Part shown: in pieces, positions 5,070-53,346 of the stretch
How the letters are laid out: each line of letters opens with the position of its first letter
How positions within the stretch are numbered: position 1 is the first letter of the stretch
Assembly: GCA_040773245.1 (NCBI GenBank)
Contig: JAXGWO010000004.1
Location: 4,290-68,289, forward strand
DNA from: PVC group bacterium
GTDB lineage: Bacteria > Auribacterota > Erginobacteria > Erginobacterales > Erginobacteraceae
Direction: 5' to 3'
Length of the DNA: 64,000 nt
Notes under the pieces: model-generated
What the model was told of the DNA's origin: nothing
What the model saw: the letters and a program-made list of their open reading frames with translations, nothing else
The model's database searches: none
Translations under genes and position numbers: made by a program

Positions 5070-5160
5070 TGATCCCGATCCCGAGTCCGACCCCGATCAA
5101 GCCCGTAATCGTCGAATTCAATTCGGGGTCGGGACCGGTATCGCTATCGGTATCGAAGCC
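5070..5160. repeat. Hexamer-family palindromic repeat array, GATCCC/GGTATC/GCTATC variants.
   Basis: GATCCCGATCCCGAG...GGTATCGCTATCGGTATCGAAG between rmlB and rmlD. Confidence 0.6.
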
Positions 5161-5175
5161 GAATTCCTAATTGTT

Positions 5176-6027
5176 ATGGGCGATGAGCGATCCATTCTGG
5201 TGATCGGCCACCGCGGCCTCCTCGGGAGGGCGTGTCTGGATGTCCTCTCCGGTCGGTTTTCGATCTCCGGGGTCGATCTCGACCGTTGCGATATAACCCG
5301 GCCGGACCGGATCGCGGAGTCCCTGGACGGTTTCCGTCCCCGGTGGGTGATCAACACCGCCGCCGTCACCGACGTCGACGGCTCCGAGGCCGACCCCGAA
5401 CGGGCCTGGGAGGTCAACGCCCGCGGCCCCGGGAACCTGGCCGCGGCCTGCCGCGAGCGGGGGAGCCGGCTTCTCCAGGTCAGCACCGATTTCGTCTTCG
5501 ACGGCCGGAAGGACGAACCTTACCGGGAAGACGATCCCCCGCGCCCGCTCAGCGTTTACGGGGCGAGCAAGCGGGGGGGAGAGGAGGCGGTGGCGGCGGC
5601 CGGGGGAGATTATCTGATCGTCCGGACGTCCTGGCTCTTCGGGCCCGGGGGAAAGAATTTCCCGGACACGATCCTGCGGGCGGCCGGGAGGAACCCCCGG
5701 CTGGAGGTGGTCGCCGACCAGCGGGGGGCGCCCACCTACTCGCGCGACCTGGCCGCGGGGCTGGGAGACCTGATCGAGAAGGACGCCTCCGGGATCGTCC
5801 ACCTCACCAACCGGGGGGACTGCTCCTGGTACGAGTACGCCGTCTTCATCCTCCGGACCGCCGGGATCGATGCCGAGGTCGTCCCGATCTCCAGCGGGAA
5901 ACTGGCCCGCCCGGCTCCCCGTCCCCGCTACTCGGTGCTCTCCCTGGAACGATACCGGGCGATCACCGGGAAGTCCCCCCGCCCCTGGGAGGAAGCCGTG
6001 CGGGAATATTTGGGGAGTGGGGAGTAG
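5176..6027 (+). CDS. rmlD: dTDP-4-dehydrorhamnose reductase.
   Basis: 283 aa. N-terminal ILVIGHRGLLGRA and family-wide similarity (VSTDFVFDG, YGASK). Confidence 0.85.
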   Translation: MGDERSILVIGHRGLLGRACLDVLSGRFSISGVDLDRCDITRPDRIAESLDGFRPRWVINTAAVTDVDGSEADPERAWEVNARGPGNLAAACRERGSRLLQVSTDFVFDGRKDEPYREDDPPRPLSVYGASKRGGEEAVAAAGGDYLIVRTSWLFGPGGKNFPDTILRAAGRNPRLEVVADQRGAPTYSRDLAAGLGDLIEKDASGIVHLTNRGDCSWYEYAVFILRTAGIDAEVVPISSGKLARPAPRPRYSVLSLERYRAITGKSPRPWEEAVREYLGSGE

Positions 6028-6100
6028 GCAGTGGGGAGTGGTCCCGTAACCGATCACCGATTACTGCTTACTGCGCACTGCTTACCGCTCACTGCTCACC
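6012..6100. repeat. Heptamer-family palindromic repeat array: GGGAGT/GGCAGT followed by ACTGCTT/ACTGCGC/ACCGCTC.
   Basis: GGGGAGTGGGGAGTAGGCAGTGGGGAGTGG ... TTACTGCTTACTGCGCACTGCTTACCGCTCACTGCTCACC, overlapping the rmlD stop. Confidence 0.7.
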
Positions 6101-6448: not shown

Positions 6449-6537
6449 ATCGCTATCGCTATCGGGATCGCTATCGGGATCGAAGATCCGCCCTGCGCCG
6501 GTCGATAGCGATACCGCTAGCGATCCCGATACCGATT
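6449..6537. repeat. Hexamer-family palindromic repeat array.
   Basis: ATCGCTATCGCTATCGGGATCGCTATCGGGATCG ... CGATAGCGATACCGCTAGCGATCCCGATACCGAT, inverted halves around a GC-rich loop. Confidence 0.75.
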
Positions 6538-8123: not shown

Positions 8124-8186
8124 ACAGTGGGCAGTAGGCAGTAGGCAGTGGGCAGTGAATTCTGAATTCTGTATTCTGTATTCTGA
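8124..8186. repeat. Heptamer-family repeat array: GGGCAGT/AGGCAGT x4 then AATTCTG/TATTCTG x4.
   Basis: GTGGGCAGTAGGCAGTAGGCAGTGGGCAGTGAATTCTGAATTCTGTATTCTGTATTCTG between the aminopeptidase and pfk. Confidence 0.75.
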
Positions 8187-11913: not shown

Positions 11914-11936
11914 TTCTTATCCGTTCCGGGGTTAAT

Positions 11937-12014
11937 TGCTATCGCTATCGGGATCGCTATCGGGATCGGCGGTTAGGCAGTACTTGGATCCCGATAGCGA
12001 TCCCGATAGCGATT
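11937..12014. repeat. Hexamer-family perfect inverted repeat with a heptamer-type motif in the loop.
   Basis: GCTATCGCTATCGGGATCGCTATCGGGATC ... GATCCCGATAGCGATCCCGATAGCGAT, with the loop containing TAGGCAGTA. Confidence 0.8.
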
Positions 12015-12031
12015 TAAATAAGGAGAATGAG

Positions 12032-12938: not shown

Positions 12939-13010
12939 GCGGGTGTAGCTCAATGGCAGAGCTCCAGCTTCCCAAGCTGGCTACGAGGGTTCGATTCCCT
13001 TCACCCGCTT
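12939..13010 (+). tRNA. tRNA-Gly (anticodon CCC).
   Basis: Cloverleaf folded by hand. Acceptor GCGGGTG/CACCCGC, D-stem GCTC/GAGC, anticodon stem CCAGC/GCTGG with loop TTCCCAA, T-arm GGTTCGATTCC. Confidence 0.8.
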
Positions 13011-13084: not shown

Positions 13085-13114
13085 ATCGCTGTCGGTATCG
13101 GGATCGGTATCGAA
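13085..13114. repeat. Hexamer-family repeat fragment.
   Basis: CGCTGTCGGTATCGGGATCGGTATCGAAG downstream of tRNA-Gly. Confidence 0.55.
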
Positions 13115-27130: not shown

Positions 27131-27160
27131 ACCGGGATCGCTATCGCTATCGGGATCGAA
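27131..27160. repeat. Hexamer-family repeat fragment.
   Basis: ACCGGGATCGCTATCGCTATCGGGATCGAAC between apt and the phosphomutase. Confidence 0.6.
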
Positions 27161-27211: not shown

Positions 27212-28546
27212 ATGGGGATCTTCAAAGCCTACGATGTTAGGGGGGTGGTCCCCGAGGACTTCAACGAGGAGATCGCCTGCCGGGTCGGCAACGCTTTCGC
27301 CCGCTTCCTCCAGGCGAAAACCATCGTGGTCGGGCGGGATATGCGGCTCAGTTCGCCGGAGATCGCCGCCGCCGCCCGGCGGGGGATCCGGGATGCCGGC
27401 GCGGACGTGGTCGATATCGGGCTCTGCTCGACCCCCGCGCTCTACTTCGCCGACGGAAAGGGGGGGTACAGCGGGGCCCTGATGGTGACCGCTTCCCACA
27501 ACCCCGCCCGTTACAACGGGCTGAAGTTCTGCCGTGAGGATGCCATCCCCCTGAGCTACGAGACGGGGATCGGGGAGATCGAGGAGATCTTCCGCCGGGG
27601 GGAGGTCTTCCGGGCCCCGCGGGCCGGAAAAGAGAGCGCGGACGACATCACCGGGCGGTACCTGGAACACGTCCTGAGTTTTTCCCAGTACATCCGCCCC
27701 CTGACCGTCGCCGTTGACGGGGGCAACGGGATGGCGGGAAAGTACCTGCCCCTGCTCTTCGAGCGGCTGCCCTGCCGGCTGGTCCCGCTCTACCTCGAGC
27801 CGGACGGCCGCTTCCCCCACCACGAGGCCGACCCGCTCAAGGAGGAGAACCTGGCCGATCTCAAACGGCTGGTGGTGGCCAATGGCGCCGACCTGGGGGC
27901 GGCCTTCGACGGCGACGGCGACCGGATCGCCTTCGTCGACGAGACGGGGCGGACCATCTCCAACGACCTGACCACCGCCCTGATCGCCCGGGAGACCCTG
28001 GAGCGCCGCCCCGGCTCGACCGTGATCTACGACCTGAGGTCCTCCCAGGTCGTCCCCGAGGAGATCGAGCGGGCGGGGGGGAAGGCCCTGGAGTCCCGGG
28101 TCGGCCACTCCTACATCAAGGCCCTGATGCGGGAGGAGGACGCGGTCTTCGCCGGGGAGCTCTCCGGCCACTACTACTTCCGGGCCAACTTCTTCGCCGA
28201 CAACGCCGAGATCGCCCTGGTCAAGATGCTCAACCTGCTCAGCTCCCGCTCCGAGCCGCTCTCGAAGATCGTCGCGCCGCTGCGGAGATACTCCGCCACC
28301 GGGGAGATCAACTTCCCCGTTGACGACCCGGACGGGAAGATCGAGGCCCTGGCCGAGGAGTTCTCCGACGGGGAAGTTTATTTTCTCGACGGGGTCTCGG
28401 TCCGCTGGCCCGGCCGCTGGTTCAACGTCCGCAAGTCGAACACCGAGCCGCTGCTCCGCCTCAACCTGGAGGCCCCCACCGCGGCCGAGCGGGACGCGCT
28501 GCGGGAGAAGGTGGAGCGGGTGATCAGGGGAGGGAGTGGGCAGTAG
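27212..28546 (+). CDS. Phosphomannomutase/phosphoglucomutase-family enzyme.
   Basis: Active-site TASHNPARYNG loop and four alpha-D-phosphohexomutase domains. Confidence 0.85.
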   Translation: MGIFKAYDVRGVVPEDFNEEIACRVGNAFARFLQAKTIVVGRDMRLSSPEIAAAARRGIRDAGADVVDIGLCSTPALYFADGKGGYSGALMVTASHNPARYNGLKFCREDAIPLSYETGIGEIEEIFRRGEVFRAPRAGKESADDITGRYLEHVLSFSQYIRPLTVAVDGGNGMAGKYLPLLFERLPCRLVPLYLEPDGRFPHHEADPLKEENLADLKRLVVANGADLGAAFDGDGDRIAFVDETGRTISNDLTTALIARETLERRPGSTVIYDLRSSQVVPEEIERAGGKALESRVGHSYIKALMREEDAVFAGELSGHYYFRANFFADNAEIALVKMLNLLSSRSEPLSKIVAPLRRYSATGEINFPVDDPDGKIEALAEEFSDGEVYFLDGVSVRWPGRWFNVRKSNTEPLLRLNLEAPTAAERDALREKVERVIRGGSGQ

Positions 28547-28576
28547 GCAGTGGGCAGTGGGCAACAGGCAGTTATG
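28532..28576. repeat. Heptamer-family repeat array, GGGCAGT x5.
   Basis: GGGAGTGGGCAGTAGGCAGTGGGCAGTGGGCAACAGGCAGT spanning the phosphomutase stop and uppP start. Confidence 0.7.
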
Positions 28577-32872: not shown

Positions 32873-32915
32873 CCGGGGTATCCTGTCGCCGGTTGCCGCT
32901 CAAGGGGAGTTCGAT

Positions 32916-32990
32916 TGCGATAGCGATACCGATAGCGATCCCGACCGGTTGCCTCTGTCCTACTCCCCACTCCCCACTGCCCACTCCCTA
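32916..32990. repeat. Adjacent hexamer-family and heptamer-family arrays (composite locus).
   Basis: GCGATAGCGATACCGATAGCGATCCCGACC followed by CTGTCCTACTCCCCACTCCCCACTGCCCACTCCC, between the SPT-like and GNAT genes. Confidence 0.7.
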
Positions 32991-34181
32991 TATAATCCCC
33001 AGCTTCTTCCCCACCTTCGCGAAAGTCTCGAGGGCGAAGTCGAGCTGCTCGTCGGTGTGGGTGGCCATAAAGCTGGTCCGGATCAGGGTCTGCTCCGGGG
33101 GGACGGCCGGGGGGACGACCGGGTTGACGAAGATCCCGGCGTCGAAGAGGAGCTTGCGCATCAGGAAGGCCTTCTCCAGGTCGCCGATGAAGATGGGGAT
33201 GATCGGGGTCTCGCTATCACCCGTGTGGAACCCCGCGGCCTTGAAACCCTGGAGCATCTTGTGGGTGATGTCCCAGAGCCGGAAACGGCGCTCCGGTTCC
33301 CCCTCGACGATGTCGAGACAGGCCGTCACCGTCGCCACCGCCGACGGGGGGAGGCTGGCGGAGAAGATCAGGGACCGGGCGAAGTGCTTGAGGTAGTGGA
33401 TCACCGACTCGGTTCCGGCCACGCAGCCCCCGATCGAGGCCAGCGACTTGCTGAAGGTGATCATAATCAGGTCGACCTCGTCCTCGAGGCCGAAATGCTC
33501 GGCCGTTCCCCGCCCGGTCTTGCCCAGCACCCCGACCGAGTGGGCGTCGTCGACCAGGACCCGGGCGTTGTATTCCCGGGCCAGCTCGACGATCCGGGGG
33601 AGGGGGGCGATGTCCCCTTCCATACTGAAGATCCCGTCGATGACGATCAGCTTGCCGTTCTCCCCGCAGCGGGAGAGGACCCGCTCGAGATCGTCCATAT
33701 CGCCGTGGGTGAACTTCTTGATCTTGCCGAAAGAGAGCCTGGTGCCGTCGATGATGCTGGCGTGGTCGAGGCGGTCGATCAGGACGGTGTCGTTCTTGCC
33801 GACCAGGGCGGAGATCGCACCCAGGTTGGCCTGGAAGCCGGTGGAGAAGACCAGGGCCGCCTCTTTCCGGAAGAAGGCGGCCAGCCGTTCCTCCAGCTGC
33901 CGGTGGATGTCGAGGGTGCCGTTGAGGAAGCGGGAGCCGGCGCAACCGGTCCCGTACTTCTCCAGGGCGGCGATGGCCGCCTCCTTGACCTTCGGATGGC
34001 AGGTCAGCCCCAGGTAGCTGTTGGAGCCGAGCATCAGGATCTTCCGGCCCTCGATCATCACCTCGGTCTCCTGGGCCGAGGCGATCTCGGTGAAGTAGGG
34101 GTAGAGCCCCGCGGCCATAATTTCCCGGGCCCGGGTGAATTCGTCGCACTTGGTGAAGAGATCAGCCATTGAATTATTCAC
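32988..34181 (-). CDS. PLP-dependent alpha-oxoamine synthase, serine palmitoyltransferase / 8-amino-7-oxononanoate synthase family.
   Basis: PLP lysine in TFSKSLAS, glycine-rich GSNSYLGL and HS/DDAHS motifs. 397 aa. Confidence 0.85.
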
Positions 34182-39422: not shown

Positions 39423-39495
39423 GGGCGATTAGCTCAGCGGGAGAGCACCTGGATCACAACCAGGGGGTCACTGGTTCAATCCCAGTATCGCCCAT
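39423..39495 (+). tRNA. tRNA-Val (anticodon CAC).
   Basis: GGGCGATTAGCTCAGCGGGAGAGC D-arm, anticodon stem CCTGG/CCAGG with loop ATCACAA, T-arm GGTTCAATCC, acceptor GGGCGAT/ATCGCCC. Confidence 0.8.
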
Positions 39496-40283: not shown

Positions 40284-40688
40284 AACGGGGAGAGGTAGAT
40301 GGTCGCCTCCCGCCGCCGCCTTAAGGCGAAGGCGGGGGGAGGAAAGTCCGAACTCCGCAGGGCAGGGCGCCCCGAGAAGATCGGGGGCCCCGGGGGGGAG
40401 ACCCCCCGGGGACGGAAAGTGCCGCAGAAAACAGACCGCCGATGGTCCCGATCCCCGGATCGGGGCACAGGCAAGGGTGAAAAGGTGCGGTAAGAGCGCA
40501 CCGCCCGGCGCGTGAGCGCCGGGGCAGGGCAAACCCCGCCCGGAGCAAGGCCAAATAGGGGCCGAGGTGCTGCCCGCACCGTTCGAGGCCCGGGTAGGCC
40601 GCACTGAGCCCGAGGGCAACCGAGGGCCGAGATAGATGACCATCGCCCCTTAAAGGGGGACAGAATTCGGCTTATTCCTCTCCCCGTC
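40284..40688 (+). ncRNA. rnpB: RNase P RNA, bacterial type A.
   Basis: Universally conserved rnpB blocks are all present: GGAAAGTCCGAACTCC...CAGGGCAGG, GGAAAGTGCCGCAGAAAACAGACCGCC, GGTAAGAGCGCACC, GGGCAAACCCCGCCCGGAGCAAGGCCAAATAGGGG, AGATAGATGA and the P4 3' strand ACAGAATTCGGCTTA. P1 pairs ACGGGGAGAGG with CCTCTCCCCGT. Confidence 0.85.
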
Positions 40689-40709
40689 CTGCCGATCTTT
40701 TCCCTGCCG

Positions 40710-42538: not shown

Positions 42539-42928
42539 ATGAACGAGAATAATTTCGCCTGCCCCGGGCGGCTGGAGATCGGCCGCCTCTGTATCCAGGG
42601 TCTCTGGACCGCGCTGCTGGGCGGGGTCCTGCTCGGGATGTCCTACCTCTGGATTTACTCGCAGGTCATCCAGACCAGCAACGCCCTGGAAATTCACGAA
42701 AACCGCGCCGCCTACCTGGCGGATCGGGCCCTGACCCTGCAGAGCCAGCTGGAAGCGCTGCAGTCGCCCCACTCCATCGCCCGGATGCTGCGGGACCGGG
42801 AGATCGCCCTGGCCGACCCCGATCCCCGCCAGATCGTCCGGGTGCGGCGGGAGGAGTTCCCGGAGGTTTCGCGTCCGCCCCGCGCGGCCGCGCCCGGGGA
42901 CCTGGTTATCCTGAGCATCGCCCGGTAA
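42539..42928 (+). CDS. ftsL: Cell division protein FtsL-like, bitopic with a coiled coil.
   Basis: Single TM helix plus coiled coil, 129 aa, at the conserved position between rsmH and ftsI. Confidence 0.7.
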   Translation: MNENNFACPGRLEIGRLCIQGLWTALLGGVLLGMSYLWIYSQVIQTSNALEIHENRAAYLADRALTLQSQLEALQSPHSIARMLRDREIALADPDPRQIVRVRREEFPEVSRPPRAAAPGDLVILSIAR

Positions 42929-46254: not shown

Positions 46255-47706
46255 ATGGAATCGCAGCGGATCAGGACCATCGCCGGCTGGACGAAGGGCA
46301 ATCTGGAGCGGGGCGACCCGGAAGGGACGGCGTCCGGGGTCGCCATCGACAGCCGGACCATCCGTCCCGGGGAGATCTTCCTCGCCCTGGCGGGAGGGAG
46401 GTATGACGGTCACGACTACGCCGCCGCCGCCCTCGATTCCGGGGCGGCCGGGGTGATCCTCTCCCGACCGGCGGCGGAGATCGAGCGGCGGGAGGGAGAG
46501 TTCGCCCTGATCCGGGTCGGGGCCGGACTCCCGGCGCTGGCCGGTCTGGCCCGGGGTTACCGGAGACTGTTCAGCCCGGCGGCCATCGCCGTCACCGGGA
46601 GCAACGGGAAGACCACGACCAAGAACCTGATCGGGCTCTTCCTGGGGGAGGATAGGGCGACCCTGACCGCCCCCGCCAGCTACAACAACCTGATCGGCGT
46701 CTCCCTGACCATCCTCCGGCTCTCCGGGACGGACCGGGCGGCGGTCTTCGAGCTGGGCACCAACCATCCCGGGGAGATCGGGGAACTGGCCCGCCTCTGC
46801 CGTCCCTCGCGGGCGGTGATCACCAATATCGGCCCCGCCCACCTCGGCCGTTTCGGCAGCCTGGAGGCGGTCGCCGCCGAGAAGGGGCAGGTGCTGGAGG
46901 CCCTGGAAGGAGAGAAGACAACCTTCCTCAACACCGACGATCCGCGGGCGGCGGCCCTGGCCGGCCGGGCCCCCGGGGAGGTGATCGGTTTCGGTCTGGA
47001 GCCGCCGGCCCGGGTCCGCGCCCTGGATATCCGCCGCCGCCCCGGCGGGGTCAGTTTCCGGGCCACCCTCCGGGGAGGCGAACTTCCGATCGAGGCCCCG
47101 CTGCCCGGGCGGCACAATATCCTCAACCTGCTGGCCGCCCTGGCGGTTGGGGATCACTTCGGGGTCGATCCCGAGGCGATGCGCCAGGCGGCGCTGAAGG
47201 CCGCCCTTCCCCCCGGACGGATGGAGAGAATCAGGCTGGGTGGGGCGGAGGTCATCAACGACGCCTACAACGCCAACCCGGTCTCGATGACGGCGGCCCT
47301 GGCGGCCTGGCTGGAGATGGACTGCCCGGGAAGAAGGATCCTGGTCAGCGGGGATATGAACGAACTGGGCGATTTCTCCGAAGCCGCCCATCGGGAATGG
47401 GGAGAGCGGTTGTCCGGATCGGGGCTCGACACCCTGATTTTTCTCGGTCCCCTCTCCCGGGCGGCGGCCGAAGCCGCCCGGGCCACCGGCGGGACCGTCC
47501 GGGTGGAGACCGTCGATGACTGCCGGGAAGCGGCGGAGATTTTAAATGCCATCGTCCGTCCCGGGGACAGCGTCCTGCTCAAGGGCTCGCGGAAGATGGG
47601 GCTGGAGGAGATCGTGGAGATACTGAGAAGTCAGAAGTCGGAGGTCAGAAGTCAGAATACAGAATACAGAATTCAGAAGGGGGAGCCGGGGGCCGGGTCA
47701 TTCTGA
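46255..47706 (+). CDS. murF: UDP-N-acetylmuramoyl-tripeptide--D-alanyl-D-alanine ligase.
   Basis: GSNGKTTTKNLI P-loop and Mur ligase domains. The C-terminal approximately 25 aa read into the heptamer repeat array. Confidence 0.9.
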   Translation: MESQRIRTIAGWTKGNLERGDPEGTASGVAIDSRTIRPGEIFLALAGGRYDGHDYAAAALDSGAAGVILSRPAAEIERREGEFALIRVGAGLPALAGLARGYRRLFSPAAIAVTGSNGKTTTKNLIGLFLGEDRATLTAPASYNNLIGVSLTILRLSGTDRAAVFELGTNHPGEIGELARLCRPSRAVITNIGPAHLGRFGSLEAVAAEKGQVLEALEGEKTTFLNTDDPRAAALAGRAPGEVIGFGLEPPARVRALDIRRRPGGVSFRATLRGGELPIEAPLPGRHNILNLLAALAVGDHFGVDPEAMRQAALKAALPPGRMERIRLGGAEVINDAYNANPVSMTAALAAWLEMDCPGRRILVSGDMNELGDFSEAAHREWGERLSGSGLDTLIFLGPLSRAAAEAARATGGTVRVETVDDCREAAEILNAIVRPGDSVLLKGSRKMGLEEIVEILRSQKSEVRSQNTEYRIQKGEPGAGSF

Positions 47707-47745
47707 CTTCTGAATTCTGTATTCTGAATTCTATATTTCAACAAG
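47621..47745. repeat. Heptamer-family palindromic array: CAGAAGT/CAGAATA x8, inverted as ACTTCTG/TATTCTG.
   Basis: AGAAGTCAGAAGTCGGAGGTCAGAAGTCAGAATACAGAATACAGAATTCAGAAG ... CATTCTGACTTCTGAATTCTGTATTCTGAATTCTA between murF and mraY. Confidence 0.8.
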
Positions 47746-47755
47746 GACTTTAACT

Positions 47756-48862
47756 ATGTTCTACCACATCTTCTACCCGCTCCGCGATCTCTGGTTCGGC
47801 TTCAATATCTTCCGCTACATCACCTTCCGGTCGGCCGCGGCGGCCCTGACCGCCTTCCTGATCAGCGTGATCTTCGGTCCCGCCCTGATCCGGAAGCTGC
47901 GGGAGCTGAAGGTCGGGGAGAAGGTCCGGAACGGGAAGTGCTATGAAGAACTCTACCGCCGCCACAAGGACAAGGAGGGGACCCCGACGATGGGCGGGCT
48001 GATCATCATCCTGGCGGTGATGGCGGCCACGGTTCTCTGGGCCCGCCTGGAGACGACCCAGGTGATCATCATCGTGATCTCCTCCCTCTGGCTGGGAACC
48101 ATCGGTTTCATCGACGATTGGATCAAGCTGAAGCGGCTCGGCCGGCGGGGGCTGCGGGGCCGGGTCAAGCTGGCCGGGCAGGTGGTCCTCGGGCTGGCGA
48201 TCGGTCTCTTTCTCACCTACCATCCCGAGACTTCCGCTTACGCCGGTCACCTCTGGGTCCCCTTCTACAAGCACGCCGTCCTGGAGAACATCGGCCTCTT
48301 CTCCATCCCCCTGGTCATCCTGGTCCTGGTCGGTTCGACCAACGCCGTCAACCTGACCGACGGCCTCGACGGCCTGGCCGTCGGCTGCCTGGCGATCGCC
48401 GCCCTCGCCTTCGCGGCGCTGGCCTACCTGATCGGCCACATCGAGTTCGCCGCCTACCTCCAGGTACCCTACATCCCGGGGGCCGGGGAACTGACGGTCT
48501 TCTGCGCCGCCCTGGGTGGCGCCGGCCTCGGCTTCCTCTGGTTCAACGCCTACCCGGCCGAGATCTTTATGGGCGACACCGGGGCCCTGGCCTGCGGGGG
48601 AGCGATCGGAACGGTGGCGGTGCTCCTGAAGAAGGAACTCTTCCTCCTCCTGATCGGGGGGGTCTTCGTGGTCGAGGCCCTCTCGGTGATCCTCCAGGTG
48701 GCCAGCTTCCGCCTCCGGGGCGGGAAGCGGATCTTCCTGATGGCCCCGCTCCACCATCACTTCCAGATCAAGAACATCCCGGAGAACAAGATCACCGTCC
48801 GCCTCTGGATCTGCGCGGTGATCTGCGCCCTGATCGGACTGGGGGCGCTGAAGATGCGATGA
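47756..48862 (+). CDS. mraY: Phospho-N-acetylmuramoyl-pentapeptide transferase.
   Basis: 10-TM MraY with conserved DD and HHH motifs (NAVNLTDGLDGLA). Confidence 0.95.
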   Translation: MFYHIFYPLRDLWFGFNIFRYITFRSAAAALTAFLISVIFGPALIRKLRELKVGEKVRNGKCYEELYRRHKDKEGTPTMGGLIIILAVMAATVLWARLETTQVIIIVISSLWLGTIGFIDDWIKLKRLGRRGLRGRVKLAGQVVLGLAIGLFLTYHPETSAYAGHLWVPFYKHAVLENIGLFSIPLVILVLVGSTNAVNLTDGLDGLAVGCLAIAALAFAALAYLIGHIEFAAYLQVPYIPGAGELTVFCAALGGAGLGFLWFNAYPAEIFMGDTGALACGGAIGTVAVLLKKELFLLLIGGVFVVEALSVILQVASFRLRGGKRIFLMAPLHHHFQIKNIPENKITVRLWICAVICALIGLGALKMR

Positions 48863-50232
48863 AAATCGGGGATGCCGCCATAATCGGACTGGGCCGAAGC
48901 GGCGAGGCGGCGGCGGAACTGCTCCTGGAGAGGGGGGCCGCAGTGACCGTCTTCGACGACCGGGCCGGGCCCGCCCAGCAGGAGAGAGCCGTCCGGCTGA
49001 AGGAGAAGGGAGCGGTTCTTCACCTGGGAGCGGAGTCGGGGAAGGGGTGGGGCGGCTTCCGGACGGTGATCGCCAGCCCCGGGGTCCCCCCCGGCCATCC
49101 GCTGCTGGCCCGGGCGCGGCGGGAAAAGGTCCCGGTCATCTCCGAGGTCGAACTGGCCGGCCGCTTCCTGAAAGGACGGCTGATCGCGGTCACCGGGACC
49201 AACGGCAAGACGACCACGGTCAGCCTGCTGGTCGAGATCTTCCGCCGGGCGGGGGCGAAGGCCGCGGCGGCGGGCAATATCGGCTACCCGCTCTGCCGGC
49301 TGGTCCGCGAAGGCAATGATTGCGCGGTGGTGGTGGCGGAGATCAGTTCCTTCCAGCTGGAACAGGTCGAAACCTTCCGGCCGGGGAGCGCGGTCTTTCT
49401 CAACCTGGCGCCCGATCATCTCGACCGCTACCCGGGGATGAAGGAGTACGGGGAGGCGAAGCTGAAGATCTTCGCCCGCCAGGGGAGGGGGGATCGGGCG
49501 ATCTACCCCGAGTCCCTGGCCGCTTTCGTGGAGCGGACCCTGCCCCCCGGCGTGGAGAAGGTAACCTGGGGCGGGAAACGGGGAACGGTACGGTTCGAGC
49601 GGGGTGAACTTCGTTACTATTCCCCCGGCGGCGGGGGAACGATCTGCCGCGAAGAAGATATCGCGGGCCGGGGCGCGGCCTTCCGCGAGAACGTCCTGGC
49701 CGCCGCCGCCGTCGCCCTCCGGGAAGGGGTGGCGGCGGGGGATATCGCCGCCGTCCTGGGGACCTTTGCCGGCATCCCCCACCGGCTGGAGTACGTCGCC
49801 GGGGCGGCGGGGGTGGAGTTCTACAACGACTCCAAGGCCACCAACCCGGCGGCGGTGGCCGCGGCCCTGGAGTCTTTCTCCCGTCCGGTCATCTGGCTGG
49901 CCGGGGGGAGCGACAAGAGTCTCGACTTCTCCCCCCTGGGGCCGCTTCTGCCGGGACGGGTGAAGCGGGCGATTCTCCTGGGAGAGACCCGGGAGAAGCT
50001 GCGTTCCCTGGCGGAGGGGAGAGTAGCCTTCCAGGTTGTCTCCAGTCTCCCGGAGGCGGTCGGCGCGGCCTGGCAGGCAGCCGCCCCGGGGGACGTGGTC
50101 CTTCTCTCCCCCGGGTGCGCCAGTTTCGATATGTTCCCCGACTACCGGGCCCGGGGGGAGCTCTTCAAATCCCTGGTCGGGGAACTGGTGTCCCGGGCCG
50201 GAAAGGCCCAACGGAGTCAATGTCCCCGGTAA
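48859..50232 (+). CDS. murD: UDP-N-acetylmuramoylalanine--D-glutamate ligase.
   Basis: N-terminal Rossmann GLGRSGEAAA and GTNGKTTT P-loop. ATG overlaps mraY's stop. Track ORF 48118-50232 has a spurious 5' extension. Confidence 0.9.
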   Translation: MKIGDAAIIGLGRSGEAAAELLLERGAAVTVFDDRAGPAQQERAVRLKEKGAVLHLGAESGKGWGGFRTVIASPGVPPGHPLLARARREKVPVISEVELAGRFLKGRLIAVTGTNGKTTTVSLLVEIFRRAGAKAAAAGNIGYPLCRLVREGNDCAVVVAEISSFQLEQVETFRPGSAVFLNLAPDHLDRYPGMKEYGEAKLKIFARQGRGDRAIYPESLAAFVERTLPPGVEKVTWGGKRGTVRFERGELRYYSPGGGGTICREEDIAGRGAAFRENVLAAAAVALREGVAAGDIAAVLGTFAGIPHRLEYVAGAAGVEFYNDSKATNPAAVAAALESFSRPVIWLAGGSDKSLDFSPLGPLLPGRVKRAILLGETREKLRSLAEGRVAFQVVSSLPEAVGAAWQAAAPGDVVLLSPGCASFDMFPDYRARGELFKSLVGELVSRAGKAQRSQCPR

Positions 50233-50253
50233 AACCGGGCTGATTTATCCGGG

Positions 50254-50356
50254 GTCGGTATCGCTATCGGGATCGGAATCGAAGGTGTTCGCGGTTCGAT
50301 AGCGATAGCGATAGCGATACCGATACCGATAGCGATAGCGATTCCGATAGCGATTG
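50254..50356. repeat. Hexamer-family palindromic array, the largest in the window with about 15 units.
   Basis: GGTATCGCTATCGGGATCGGAATCGAAG ... CGATAGCGATAGCGATAGCGATACCGATACCGATAGCGATAGCGATTCCGATAGCGATTG between murD and the LysM lipoprotein. Confidence 0.8.
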
Positions 50357-50395
50357 TTGATGGGAACAATACCCCCAAGGGGGGAGGAGGGAGAG

Positions 50396-50830
50396 ATGAT
50401 GAATAAGACCAGGATGGTATTTTACGGATCGCTGGGAGCCCTGGTGTCGGTGCTGATCTGGAGTTTTATCGGCGGCTGCCACACTTCTTCCCGGCCGCTG
50501 CCCCCGGTGCCTCCGGCCGAAGAACCGGCCCCCGAAGAGATCGCCCCGCCGGCCCCGGTCAGCCAGGAGACCCTGATCGAGGAGGGGATCACGGCCGGCG
50601 ACCAACCACCGGTTGCGGCCGAACCTCCGCCGGCCCCGAAGGAAGCGCCGGCGGCCGAAGCGGTCGAAGCCCCAGCGCCGGCTCCTTCCCGGACCCACAC
50701 GGTGGCCAAGGGCGATACCCTCTGGGGGATCAGCAAGCAGTACGGGGTGACCACGAAAGCGATCGAAGAGGCGAACAAACTCGCGGATCCCGACCGCCTC
50801 TCGGTGGGGCAGCAGCTGGTCATCCCCTGA
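50396..50830 (+). CDS. LysM-domain lipoprotein with a Pro/Ala-rich linker, inserted in the dcw cluster.
   Basis: Signal peptide with a lipobox-like FIGGC, a PAPEE-rich low-complexity linker and a C-terminal LysM (HTVAKGDTLWGISKQYGV...VGQQLVIP). GGAGG RBS. Confidence 0.7.
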   Translation: MMNKTRMVFYGSLGALVSVLIWSFIGGCHTSSRPLPPVPPAEEPAPEEIAPPAPVSQETLIEEGITAGDQPPVAAEPPPAPKEAPAAEAVEAPAPAPSRTHTVAKGDTLWGISKQYGVTTKAIEEANKLADPDRLSVGQQLVIP

Positions 50831-50858
50831 ACCCCGGGATGAAGAGACGGACGGAGAT

Positions 50859-52055
50859 TTGATGCGCGCCGCAATCCAGACCGGGAGCGAAAGCTGGCGG
50901 CCCGGCAATCATCTGCCGCTGATCCTGATCTCCCTGGTGGCCGGCCTGATCGGGCTCGGCCTGCTGATGATCTACAGCTCTTCCGCCGTCTATTCCCTCG
51001 ACACCTACGGCGACCGCTACTTCATCATCCGGCGCCAGCTGCTCTGGCTGGGGGCGGGACTGGCCGCCGCCGTCGCCGCCGCCCGGATCGATTACCGCCG
51101 GCTCCAGGGGAAGAGCCGGCTGCTGCTCCTGGCCGGGGTCGTTCTCCTGGCGGCGGTCTTCGTCCCCGGCTTGGGCCGGAGCGGGGGCGGCGCCCGGCGC
51201 TGGCTGGCGGCGGGGGTGATCAGTTTCCAGCCCGCCGAACTGGTGAAGTACCTGGTGGTCATCTATCTGGCCGACCTCCTCTCCCGCCGCCAGCGGGAGA
51301 TAACCCGCTTCGGCACCGGTTTTCTCCCCCCGCTGGCGGTGATCGGGCTGCTCAGCGGCCTGGTGCTGATCCAGCCCGACCTGGGGACCGCCCTCTCCAT
51401 CGCCGCCATCGGCCTGCTCCTGCTCTATCTCGGCGGGGCCCGGCCGGCCCATCTCGGAGCCCTCTGCCTTACGGCCCTCCCGGTGCTGGCGGTGATGGTG
51501 GTCCGGGTCGGTTACCGGATGCGGAGGATCCTGGCCTTCGTCGATCCCTGGGCCGATCCCCGGGGGGCCGGTTTCCAGATCATCCAGTCGCTGATCGCGC
51601 TGGGCTCGGGCGGTCCGACCGGACTGGGACTGGGCGAGAGCCGGCAGAAGCTCTTCTACCTCCCGGCGGCGACCACCGACTTCATCTTTTCCATCCTTGG
51701 CGAGGAACTGGGTTTCCTCGGCAGCGCCCTGACCGTCGCTCTCACGGCGGGGATACTGATAACCGGTTTCCGGATCGCCGGCCGTTCGAGCGATCTCTTC
51801 GGGCAGCTCCTGGCCCGGGGAGTGACCGCGATGCTGGTTCTCCAGGCTTTGATCAATATGGGGGTCTCCTGCGGGATGCTTCCGACCAAGGGGCTGCCTT
51901 TCCCCTTCATCAGTTACGGCGGCTCCAACCTTTTGGCCAGCTGCCTGGCGGTGGGGCTGCTGATCTCCGTCGCCGTTCACTCCGACAACGAATGCCGCCG
52001 GCGGGGCCGCCGGCAGGCGATCCGTCTCTTTCAACCAAGGACCGGGGGACAGTGA
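50859..52055 (+). CDS. ftsW: SEDS-family peptidoglycan glycosyltransferase FtsW.
   Basis: 10-TM SEDS protein; track ORF 50859-52055. Start is TTG at 50859 or ATG at 50862. Confidence 0.9.
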   Translation: MMRAAIQTGSESWRPGNHLPLILISLVAGLIGLGLLMIYSSSAVYSLDTYGDRYFIIRRQLLWLGAGLAAAVAAARIDYRRLQGKSRLLLLAGVVLLAAVFVPGLGRSGGGARRWLAAGVISFQPAELVKYLVVIYLADLLSRRQREITRFGTGFLPPLAVIGLLSGLVLIQPDLGTALSIAAIGLLLLYLGGARPAHLGALCLTALPVLAVMVVRVGYRMRRILAFVDPWADPRGAGFQIIQSLIALGSGGPTGLGLGESRQKLFYLPAATTDFIFSILGEELGFLGSALTVALTAGILITGFRIAGRSSDLFGQLLARGVTAMLVLQALINMGVSCGMLPTKGLPFPFISYGGSNLLASCLAVGLLISVAVHSDNECRRRGRRQAIRLFQPRTGGQ

Positions 52056-52234
52056 TGAAAGACCACGAGCTCTGCCCGTACTTCGAAACCTGCCTGATCA
52101 GCAACCTCCTCAAGACCATCGATGTCCCGGAGGTCCTGCGCTACTGCGCCGGCAATTATCAAAACTGTCGCTACCTTCCGCGGTCGGCCCGGAGCCGGCC
52201 GTTCGCGGATAAACGGGAGCCCGCCAAGGTATGA
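52055..52234 (+). CDS. Small four-cysteine protein of 59 aa, translationally coupled between ftsW and murG.
   Basis: ATG at 52055 overlaps the ftsW stop; its stop overlaps the murG ATG (ATGA). Sequence MKDHELCPYFETCLISNLLKTIDVPEVLRYCAGNYQNCRYL. Confidence 0.5.
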   Translation: MKDHELCPYFETCLISNLLKTIDVPEVLRYCAGNYQNCRYLPRSARSRPFADKREPAKV

Positions 52235-53346
52235 GACTGGCCCTGGCCGGAGGCGGCACCGGGGGACACCTGGCCCCGGCCATCGCGCTCCTCGAAGAAC
52301 TGGGGAACCGGGGGGGAGTTCCCGGGGGCCTCGTCCTGACCTCCGGCCCGCCCGCCGCCGCGCTGGAGCGGTCCGCCCCCGGCAGCCGGGTCGTCTCCAT
52401 CGACTCCGCCCCCCTCGTCCTGAGCCGTCCCTGGCGGCTCCCGGCCCGGCTGCTGAGGATCCGGCGGGGGTACCGCCGGTCGCTCGCGGCCCTGCGGAAG
52501 TTCCGGCCCGACCTGGTGATCGGGTTGGGGGGATACGTCTCCGCCCCCCCTCTCCTGGCCGCCCGGCGGCTGAAGATCCCGGCGGTCTGCCACGAGCAGA
52601 ACCGGGTGCCGGGCCGGGCCAACCGTCTTCTGGCCCGGGGCCCGGTCCGGGTTATCTCCGCCTTCCCCCTGCTCCCGGGGAGGATCGACCCCGCCCGGGT
52701 GACCTGCCTGGGTGCGCCGGTCCGCCGGGCGGCGCTGGCCCCGGCCCCGGAGGGGACCGCCGGGGCCTGGGGCCTGGAACCGGGGAGGTTCACCCTCCTG
52801 GTCCTCGGGGGGAGCCGGGGGGCGAGGGCGATCAACCGGCTGCTGGAGACGTCGGCCGGCGCGCTGGCCGGTCCCTGCCCGCCGGAGCAAGTCCAGGTTA
52901 TCCACTGCGCCGGCGCGGAGGACTCCGAACGGCTGCAGCGGGCTTACCGGGTGGCGGGGCTGGCGGCCGCCGTCTTCCCCGGCCTGGAGGAGATCGGCTG
53001 GGCTTACTCCCTGGCCGACCTGGCGGTGAGCCGGGCCGGGGGGGCGACCCTGAGCGAGCTGGCCGCCTGGGGGCTGCCCTCCCTCCTCATCCCCTATCCC
53101 TTCGCCACCGAGAACCACCAGATGGAGAACGCTCTCTATTTCCGGGCGGCGGGGGCCGCGGTGGTCTTCCCGGAAGGGGAGATCGGCGCACCGGTTCTGG
53201 CCCGGGAGATTTTCCGGATCCGCTCCGACGGGGAACTCCGCCGGAAGATGTCCGCCGCAGCCCGGAGTCTGCATCGCCCCGCCGCGGCGGAAAAGATCAT
53301 CGATTGCCTGGAGAAAATGCTGGAGGAGTATGATCAACCGCGATGA
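52231..53346 (+). CDS. murG: Undecaprenyldiphospho-muramoylpentapeptide beta-N-acetylglucosaminyltransferase.
   Basis: LAGGGTGGHLAPAIAL motif and GT28 fold. Confidence 0.9.
   Translation: MRLALAGGGTGGHLAPAIALLEELGNRGGVPGGLVLTSGPPAAALERSAPGSRVVSIDSAPLVLSRPWRLPARLLRIRRGYRRSLAALRKFRPDLVIGLGGYVSAPPLLAARRLKIPAVCHEQNRVPGRANRLLARGPVRVISAFPLLPGRIDPARVTCLGAPVRRAALAPAPEGTAGAWGLEPGRFTLLVLGGSRGARAINRLLETSAGALAGPCPPEQVQVIHCAGAEDSERLQRAYRVAGLAAAVFPGLEEIGWAYSLADLAVSRAGGATLSELAAWGLPSLLIPYPFATENHQMENALYFRAAGAAVVFPEGEIGAPVLAREIFRIRSDGELRRKMSAAARSLHRPAAAEKIIDCLEKMLEEYDQPR

Follow-up and report, generated by a model that had tools for sequence, protein, structure and literature searches.

The window analysed here, a 64,000-nucleotide stretch from a PVC group bacterium of the phylum Auribacterota (contig JAXGWO010000004.1, positions 4,290 to 68,289), holds a complete division and cell wall (dcw) cluster running from mraZ through ftsZ, in which a small gene encoding a LysM protein lies between murD and ftsW (Table 1). 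A previous reading of the letters alone, hereafter the sequence-only reading, had placed an open reading frame (ORF) of this kind at the murD-ftsW junction, and this is borne out by the ORF itself, by the Pfam LysM domain in its product and by Pfam identification of both flanking genes. The ORF is a real gene under purifying selection, and its position in related genomes indicates that it is an ancient, clade-defining addition to the dcw cluster. A membrane-anchored LysM protein at the divisome is a known kind of protein; what is new is the fixed position in the dcw cluster, the presence of a conserved acidic motif and the restriction to one clade.

A Shine-Dalgarno-like GGAGG, found by direct reading of the sequence, lies inside a purine run (50380-50395) upstream of the gene, 8 nt from the ATG at 50396 and 11 nt from a second ATG at 50399, and a comparable GGAG-rich stretch is found upstream of the gene in two relatives (L001 and L003). 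The homologous proteins start at the second Met (MNK/MSK...) and the true start of the gene may therefore be 50399. The G+C content at third codon positions was 0.78, as compared with 0.85-0.92 in the neighbouring genes. Two minus-strand ORFs (50264-50908 and 50422-50874) overlap the gene; these are not coding, because conservation in the family tracks the plus-strand frame and the insertions and deletions in the linker are of whole codons.

A protein search recovered approximately 25 full-length homologues (134-157 residues, 39-99% identity) and five further, more divergent members, each with LysM, came from a search restricted to the N-terminal 65 residues, so that the conservation of the ORF is documented by approximately 30 full-length homologues in the same range of identity and by at least 17 loci. 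The exact window protein has no database record, a 143-residue protein with 99% identity being on record; the homologues are named in the database only as 'LysM peptidoglycan-binding domain-containing protein', and the organism names on their records are Ca. Erginobacter occultus and 'PVC group bacterium' only. A profile search with the full-length family does not address the range of the family, since all 150 matches listed were long proteins with multiple LysM repeats. In a metagenome scan with the N-terminal alignment, at least three loci were found and all were consistent with the order murD-LysM-ftsW.

We compared the surroundings of the gene in 17 distinct loci (the window, L001/L088, L003/L011, L005-L010, L085, L086/87, L089, L090 and L092-L095). 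murD was directly upstream in 17/17, and ftsW was directly downstream in all 16 loci where the contig continues (the contig of L090 ends inside the LysM gene). In the window ftsW starts 28-31 nt downstream of the LysM gene; its 397-residue product is 100% identical to the database protein P0208. Among the relatives bearing the LysM gene, identity to the window proteins ranged from 53% to 85% for FtsW and from 47% to 74% for MurD. In L094 and L095 the gene overlaps both murD and ftsW by 4 nt, and in L092 and L093 it overlaps murD; these start/stop overlaps imply translational coupling, and a separate promoter for the gene would have no space there. The suggestion of the sequence-only reading that a peptidoglycan-binding factor is co-expressed with FtsW is therefore strengthened, both by the strict synteny over 17 loci and by the overlapping codons in some of them.

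Scanning one genome per species with FtsW as the query, we found the gene in 7/7 representatives with FtsW of at least 68% identity and in none of the 53 evaluable loci of other phyla. The murD-ftsW gap was 123 nt or less in 48 of these 53 loci outside the clade, so that the junction is indeed usually gene-free in this sample, as the sequence-only reading had stated; over 64 loci, those of the clade included, the median gap was 15.5 nt. Ca. Ancaeobacter aquaticus (L091), which belongs to another class of the Auribacterota and has an FtsW 50% identical to that of the window, has no LysM gene and a murD-ftsW gap of 43 nt. The same reading had also taken the gene for a recent insertion, and on this point the dcw synteny comparison decides otherwise: because the position is kept across relatives with FtsW identity as low as 53%, recent insertion or foreign origin is rejected on synteny depth. 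Our literature search turned up no earlier account of LysM genes either within dcw clusters or among Auribacterota and no paper combining the dcw cluster, LysM, murD and ftsW; in the paper on these Auribacterota, LysM, peptidoglycan and FtsW all go unmentioned.

The sequence-only reading described the sequence correctly, the LysM domain and the linker included. The C-terminal domain matches the Pfam LysM model PF01476 over profile positions 1-43 of 43 (63.6 bits against a gathering cutoff of 20.9, E = 1.6e-17), and AlphaFold2, run with the family alignment, predicted the beta-alpha-alpha-beta fold of LysM for it (strands 99-102 and 140-143, helices 109-116 and 120-127) with a predicted local distance difference test score (pLDDT) of 87-91. 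LysM chains in the PDB match this region alone. The linker (residues 28-98) is Pro/Ala/Glu-rich and predicted to be disordered (pLDDT 43-56). Within it lies the short acidic motif, which also has no structure in the AlphaFold2 monomer model (pLDDT ~50). Residues E62 and E63 of the motif are invariant in an alignment of 26 core sequences, and an [LM][IV]EEG[I]-like motif can be made out in 37 of 38 family members, including the distant L092, L094 and L095. Column conservation in the 26-sequence alignment was 0.89 for the helix plus the adjoining CHT (residues 7-30, the highest of any segment), 0.81 for the acidic motif (residues 57-66), 0.77 for LysM (residues 99-144) and 0.34-0.49 for the linkers. 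On this profile the family is built of three conserved modules, i.e. an anchor ending in GGC, the acidic motif and LysM, joined by variable disordered linkers. The protein is probably exported or anchored, and from the identity of its domain is predicted to bind peptidoglycan via LysM.

Table 1. Features of the dcw cluster and of the LysM-protein gene in the window (positions in window coordinates).
Feature	Position	Strand	Remarks
mraZ	41015		dcw cluster
rsmH	41560		dcw cluster
FtsL-like ORF	42539-42928	+	129 aa; between rsmH and ftsI, the usual ftsL position
ftsI	43043		dcw cluster; followed by murE
murF	46255		dcw cluster
mraY	47756		dcw cluster
murD	48862-50232	+	Upstream neighbour; Pfam Mur_ligase_M, Mur_ligase_C, MurD-like_N
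Hexamer-repeat hairpin	50245-50356	+	murD-LysM spacer; (CTATCG-like)n left arm, (CGATAG)n right arm
Shine-Dalgarno-like GGAGG	50383-50387	+	Inside purine run
LysM-protein gene	50396-50830	+	ORF of 144 aa; 143 aa from alternative ATG 50399
Hydrophobic helix ending in lipobox-like IGGC	50414-50479	+	Residues 7-28; membrane anchor, transmembrane or lipid
Acidic linear motif E-T-L-I-E-E-G-I	50567-50590	+	Residues 58-65, within the disordered linker
LysM peptidoglycan-binding domain	50696-50827	+	Residues 101-144; Pfam PF01476
ftsW	50859/50862-52055	+	Pfam FTSW_RODA_SPOVE, 363 bits; probable start ATG 50862, 397 aa
4-Cys ORF	52055-52234	+	59 aa; between ftsW and murG, overlapping both by a few bases
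murG	52231-53346	+	Pfam Glyco_transf_28, Glyco_tran_28_C
murC	53330		dcw cluster
ddl	54675		dcw cluster
ftsQ	55904		dcw cluster
ftsA	56777		dcw cluster
ftsZ	58028		dcw cluster

We tentatively interpret the LysM protein as an accessory factor of FtsW-FtsI, the septal peptidoglycan synthase, that is specific to the lineage and constitutively co-expressed, and give this a probability of roughly 40%. The N-terminal helix would act as a signal-anchor that is retained in the cytoplasmic membrane and may in addition carry lipid at Cys28, and would pack against the membrane part of the FtsW complex, much as the transmembrane (TM) helix of YneA does on FtsW. The flexible linker of ~70 residues would let LysM reach and hold septal glycan strands, while the EEGI motif would dock a periplasmic partner, e.g. 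the FtsI pedestal, FtsQLB or a hydrolase; a motif so conserved implies that its partner is specific. The synthase would thereby be coupled to peptidoglycan, existing or nascent, by a protein whose layout resembles that of FtsN (see below), and FtsW may be stimulated, tethered or braked.

The closest precedent for the LysM protein is YneA of B. subtilis, an SOS-induced division inhibitor whose TM helix binds TM7 of FtsW; to block septal synthesis, its LysM domain must also bind peptidoglycan (PMC13396833). Both are small proteins with one N-terminal TM helix (here residues 3-27) and an extracytoplasmic LysM domain (here residues 99-144), and in our protein the helix is the most constrained part within the core family and the gene abuts ftsW. 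The LysM protein is nevertheless not a member of the YneA family and shows no homology to it outside LysM. It also differs in several features: a lipobox-like Cys is present, as is a disordered linker of ~70 residues with an acidic motif; the gene belongs to the dcw operon and has no room for an SOS promoter, whereas yneA lies next to lexA under SOS control; and the protein belongs to a PVC-group, presumably diderm, bacterium, whereas YneA is found in Bacillota.

Several observations weigh against a role as an accessory factor of FtsW-FtsI. The link to FtsW is drawn from gene position and analogy; the match to the NCBIfam YneA model (NF010723) reaches 27.6 bits, below the cutoff of 60, and covers residues 99-144 alone; and the lipobox-like Cys is retained in 36 of 38 members, including the most distant (L092-L095). 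In L093, the most distant member, the helix has diverged more than LysM, with W...IGGC kept, and the acidic motif is degenerate. None of ten clade-specific substitutions in FtsW (see below) falls in TM7, i.e. the helix bound by YneA, and the change in FtsW is a correlation with the LysM gene, a lead only, which may be plain phylogenetic signal.

At the N-terminus, K4 and R6 precede 21 hydrophobic residues that end in I-G-G-C28, and AlphaFold2 predicted a helix over residues 3-27. A lipobox rule in the style of PROSITE PS51257 was matched by 36 of 38 members, whereas the strict pattern [LVI][ASTVI][GAS]C was matched by none of the 38, because position -2 is Gly or Cys. In the deep sub-family comprising L092, L094 and L095 the helix reads ...VL[IL]WHFICGC. 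The Cys is not invariant in the family: in one subclade, represented by two independent assemblies (P0027 and L010), it is replaced by Tyr with the helix intact. Identical residues were encoded by identical codons at a frequency of 0.47 in the helix and 0.49 in the LysM block, and the helix is therefore constrained as protein and not as RNA or DNA; an RNA element or other nucleotide-level constraint behind the N-terminal conservation was rejected on the same grounds.

We read the helix as a membrane anchor with a role of its own. A transmembrane anchor that stays in place accounts for these data better than a signal peptide that is cleaved off, because the Cys is lost in a subclade which keeps the helix and because the helix is the best-conserved segment of the core family, although a cleaved and lipidated form, possibly in the outer membrane, is plausible. 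The lipoprotein signal peptide of the sequence-only reading thus stands as far as the hydrophobic N-terminus and the permissive lipobox are concerned and falters at the strict lipobox and at the Cys to Tyr subclade. Were the protein a genuine lipoprotein, cleaved by LspA at Cys28, it could be a general peptidoglycan-membrane tether acting via LysM in the inner or outer membrane, resembling the LysM part of NlpD or other staples of the envelope and making no specific contact with FtsW, the dcw location ensuring only co-expression with wall synthesis. The charged n-region, the h-region and the G-G-C/C-G-C near residues 27-28, found even in the most divergent members, are what such a lipoprotein would have, and tethering lipoproteins typically consist of a long disordered linker followed by a peptidoglycan-binding domain, as is seen here. 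However, signal peptides normally evolve fast, whereas the peptide that would be cleaved is the best-conserved part of the core family at the protein level, and a general tether does not call for the specific partner that the EEGI motif implies. Together with the absence of the strict lipobox and the loss of the Cys in two independent assemblies, this makes the lipoprotein explanation unlikely, if a serious contender; if it were true, the finding would be of modest, mainly annotational value.

A more specific form of the FtsW-FtsI reading, which we consider improbable, is that the LysM protein is a dedicated third subunit of FtsW-FtsI that replaces FtsN, with its Glu-Glu pair at extracellular loop 4 (ECL4) of FtsW or the FtsI pedestal and with the product of the 4-Cys ORF as a cytoplasmic partner. 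Its helix would lie against FtsW and its LysM domain on glycan strands, and the Glu-Glu pair would act at the activation region, which has co-changed in the clade (Glu to Ala in FtsW). If true, a polymerase of the shape, elongation, division and sporulation (SEDS) family would here be addressed much as by YneA, but in a positive sense and by an operon-encoded protein. FtsN of E. coli and other proteobacteria is reported to act on FtsWI-FtsQLB (PMC9525312, 10.1101/2024.05.13.594014). In layout the LysM protein is closer to FtsN than to YneA: both begin with an anchor and end in a glycan-binding domain, and the disordered linker between these carries a short conserved periplasmic peptide. The likeness is one of architecture only: FtsN carries SPOR where our protein carries LysM, with no match to SPOR or FtsN models in Pfam or NCBIfam; the cytoplasmic tail of ~6 residues is too short for an FtsA-binding region; and ftsN is not a dcw gene. 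The EEGI motif is not known to be related in sequence to the essential domain of FtsN.

We compared 45 FtsW sequences from the clade with 72 from loci lacking the LysM gene and found ten clade-specific positions. One of these is A270 of the window protein, the counterpart of E. coli E293 (LPEAHTD297F, ECL4): the whole clade (100%) has Ala here, and 78% of the other sequences have Glu. As a change in the proposed partner that goes with the LysM gene, it counts in favour of the accessory role. The clade reads LPA-[AS]-[TS]-TDF in place of the widespread LPE-x-H-TDF beside the catalytic Asp (residues 270-272, DNA ~51666-51674), with T272 replacing the usual His, and the LysM-less Ca. Ancaeobacter has the canonical LPEAHTDF. 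N357 and M325 also differ in the clade and presumably lie near the same cavity, as placed via an alignment to the E. coli FtsW sequence. Further clade-specific residues at 86-93 and 131-145 fall at the cytoplasmic ends of TM3 and TM4 in a by-eye segmentation. A YneA-like contact on TM7 was also sought in this pattern; the lack of substitutions there speaks neither for nor against it. In E. coli the ECL4 stretch matters for the FtsW-FtsI complex and for activation: the complex is broken when HA is inserted between E293 and A294, the allele E289G is activating, and H295A and T296A are tolerated (PMC8765783).

The ORF that follows ftsW, with four Cys residues in its product (the 4-Cys ORF), is possibly a second clade-specific addition to the cluster. 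It was found in nearly all loci with the LysM gene, e.g. as ORFs of 56-59 residues at 7648-7827 in L001, 7652-7828 in L003, 4597-4767 in L092, 4766-4942 in L093, 4166-4336 in L094 and 4172-4351 in L095, and was missing from Ca. Euphemobacter (L008) and from the LysM-less Ca. Ancaeobacter (L091). Eight residues are invariant in 11 loci (C7, P8, C13, L19, Y30, C31, C38 and Y40, i.e. CP-x4-C ... YC-x6-C-x-Y). The product has no TM segment and no match in Pfam, NCBIfam or the PDB, and may bind metal and act in the cytoplasm as a partner within this clade-specific module around FtsW.

If the LysM protein does act on FtsW-FtsI as an accessory factor, the family would be the first TM plus LysM architecture built into the division operon. 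The dcw cluster is among the most conserved of bacterial gene arrangements, and fixed additions near FtsW therefore point to lineage-specific control of SEDS enzymes, here in an uncultured PVC-group phylum whose division machinery was previously unstudied. The family offers a testable pair: the LysM protein with its conserved helix and EEGI motif, and the cognate FtsW, in which ECL4 is altered.

A different assignment of the partner would make the LysM protein a recruiter or regulator of a septal peptidoglycan hydrolase (an amidase or lytic transglycosylase), with EEGI in place of LytM. NlpD, ActS and DipM are likewise envelope proteins or lipoproteins with a role in division, which LysM directs to peptidoglycan or to the septum, and a conserved short motif in a disordered linker would suit a partner-docking peptide. 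DipM is reported to be targeted to the septum by its LysM domains and to control several autolysins (PMC10336132). The LysM region of our protein shows weak, sub-threshold similarity to ActS, DipM, NlpD and MepM; however, the matches to these named families cover that region alone and lie far below the cutoffs (14-25 bits against 311-900 for the NlpD, ActS and DipM models). The LysM protein is also much smaller, has a single LysM and no LytM or Peptidase_M23 domain, and is encoded in the dcw cluster, a different chromosomal position from those of the three proteins, with no hydrolase gene adjacent. We hold this explanation to be quite improbable.

Distinctly improbable, in our view, is a constitutive FtsW inhibitor or brake of the YneA type, whose helix would bind FtsW, whose LysM would capture nascent glycan and whose level or proteolysis would tune division. 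The gene immediately adjoins ftsW and the protein follows the same two-module logic as YneA, a TM helix with an extracytoplasmic LysM, both of which YneA requires. Against this, the gene lies in the dcw operon, with overlapping codons in some genomes, where a damage-inducible promoter would not fit (the plus strand of the window spacer showed no sigma-70-like promoter; LexA boxes were not searched for), and a constitutive, stoichiometric inhibitor of an essential enzyme would be hard to rationalise. YneA has nothing that corresponds to the 70-residue linker or to the acidic motif, and the score against the NCBIfam YneA model stays below its cutoff. SidA and DidA of Caulobacter and SosA of S. 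aureus are also small single-pass membrane proteins which act late in division on the FtsW/FtsI/FtsN module; they differ from the LysM protein in having no known peptidoglycan-binding domain, in being damage-induced and in being encoded outside the dcw cluster. Finally, that the ORF is a spurious or decaying product of a repeat-rich spacer, as its place after a repeat array and the chance ORFs that high G+C content yields in all frames might suggest, can be dismissed, being refuted by the full-length homologues in at least 17 loci, the Pfam domain far above threshold, the whole-codon insertions and deletions and the ribosome-binding site.

The repeat array upstream of the gene was the largest hexamer array of the window according to the sequence-only reading, and this is correct: Tandem Repeats Finder (TRF) reported arrays at 50255-50281 (CTATCG-type) and 50297-50354 (CGATAG x 9.7), the latter being the highest-scoring period-6 array of the window (score 88). 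The RNA of the whole hairpin is predicted to fold with -57.6 kcal/mol (z = -5.7) and that of the complete murD-LysM spacer with a minimum free energy of -72.1 kcal/mol (z = -5.2). The same hexamer family recurs in other spacers of the window, often as inverted pairs (5138-5155, 6449-6536, 11938-12013, 13092-13112, 27135-27158 and 32912-32944), with 16 matches to a 12-mer of the hexamer where 0.15 are expected and with long, near-perfect hairpins such as that at 11930-12020 (-57.2 kcal/mol, z = -9.3). In L001 a short remnant of the array stands in the corresponding place, and most of the other relatives with the LysM gene have no such array. The repeat had been taken as a hint of recent insertion; it is instead one copy of a dispersed intergenic hairpin family with at least seven sites in the window, and an insertion scar was rejected because the family is dispersed, forms hairpins elsewhere and is absent from most gene-bearing relatives. 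The repeat is therefore a property of the intergenic DNA of this genome and says nothing about the age of the gene. The elements could be similar to repetitive extragenic palindromic (REP) sequences, or RNA-stability or attenuator elements.

The spacers around the LysM gene also vary among relatives: the murD-LysM spacer is expanded to 540 nt in L005 (2975-3514) and the LysM-ftsW spacer to 300 nt in L009 (3652-3953), in both cases with no evident ORF, and the gene caller has lengthened the LysM ORF of L005 by 19 residues at its N-terminus (P0009). Elsewhere in the cluster, the FtsL-like ORF had no Pfam match and scored below threshold with the FtsL_Actino model (22 bits against a cutoff of 55). 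An Rfam scan of the window found nothing at the murD-LysM spacer and returned only a bacterial class A RNase P RNA (40286-40690, plus strand, 233 bits), which lies ~325 nt upstream of mraZ, and two plus-strand tRNA genes (12939-13009 and 39423-39494). Heptamer tandem arrays occupy other spacers (47626-47737, 6011-6100, 8125-8186, 28531-28572 and 32962-33018), with differing units (AGAAGTC, ATTCTGA, TGGGGAG, ACTGCTC, CAGTGGG, AGGCAGT and ACTCCCC). The array between murF and mraY (47626-47737) is predicted to fold into a hairpin (z = -6.6). The murF ORF extends at its 3' end into this array, so that the C-terminus of MurF is encoded by the repeat. These heptamer arrays resemble the short tandemly repeated repetitive (STRR) heptamers of cyanobacteria.

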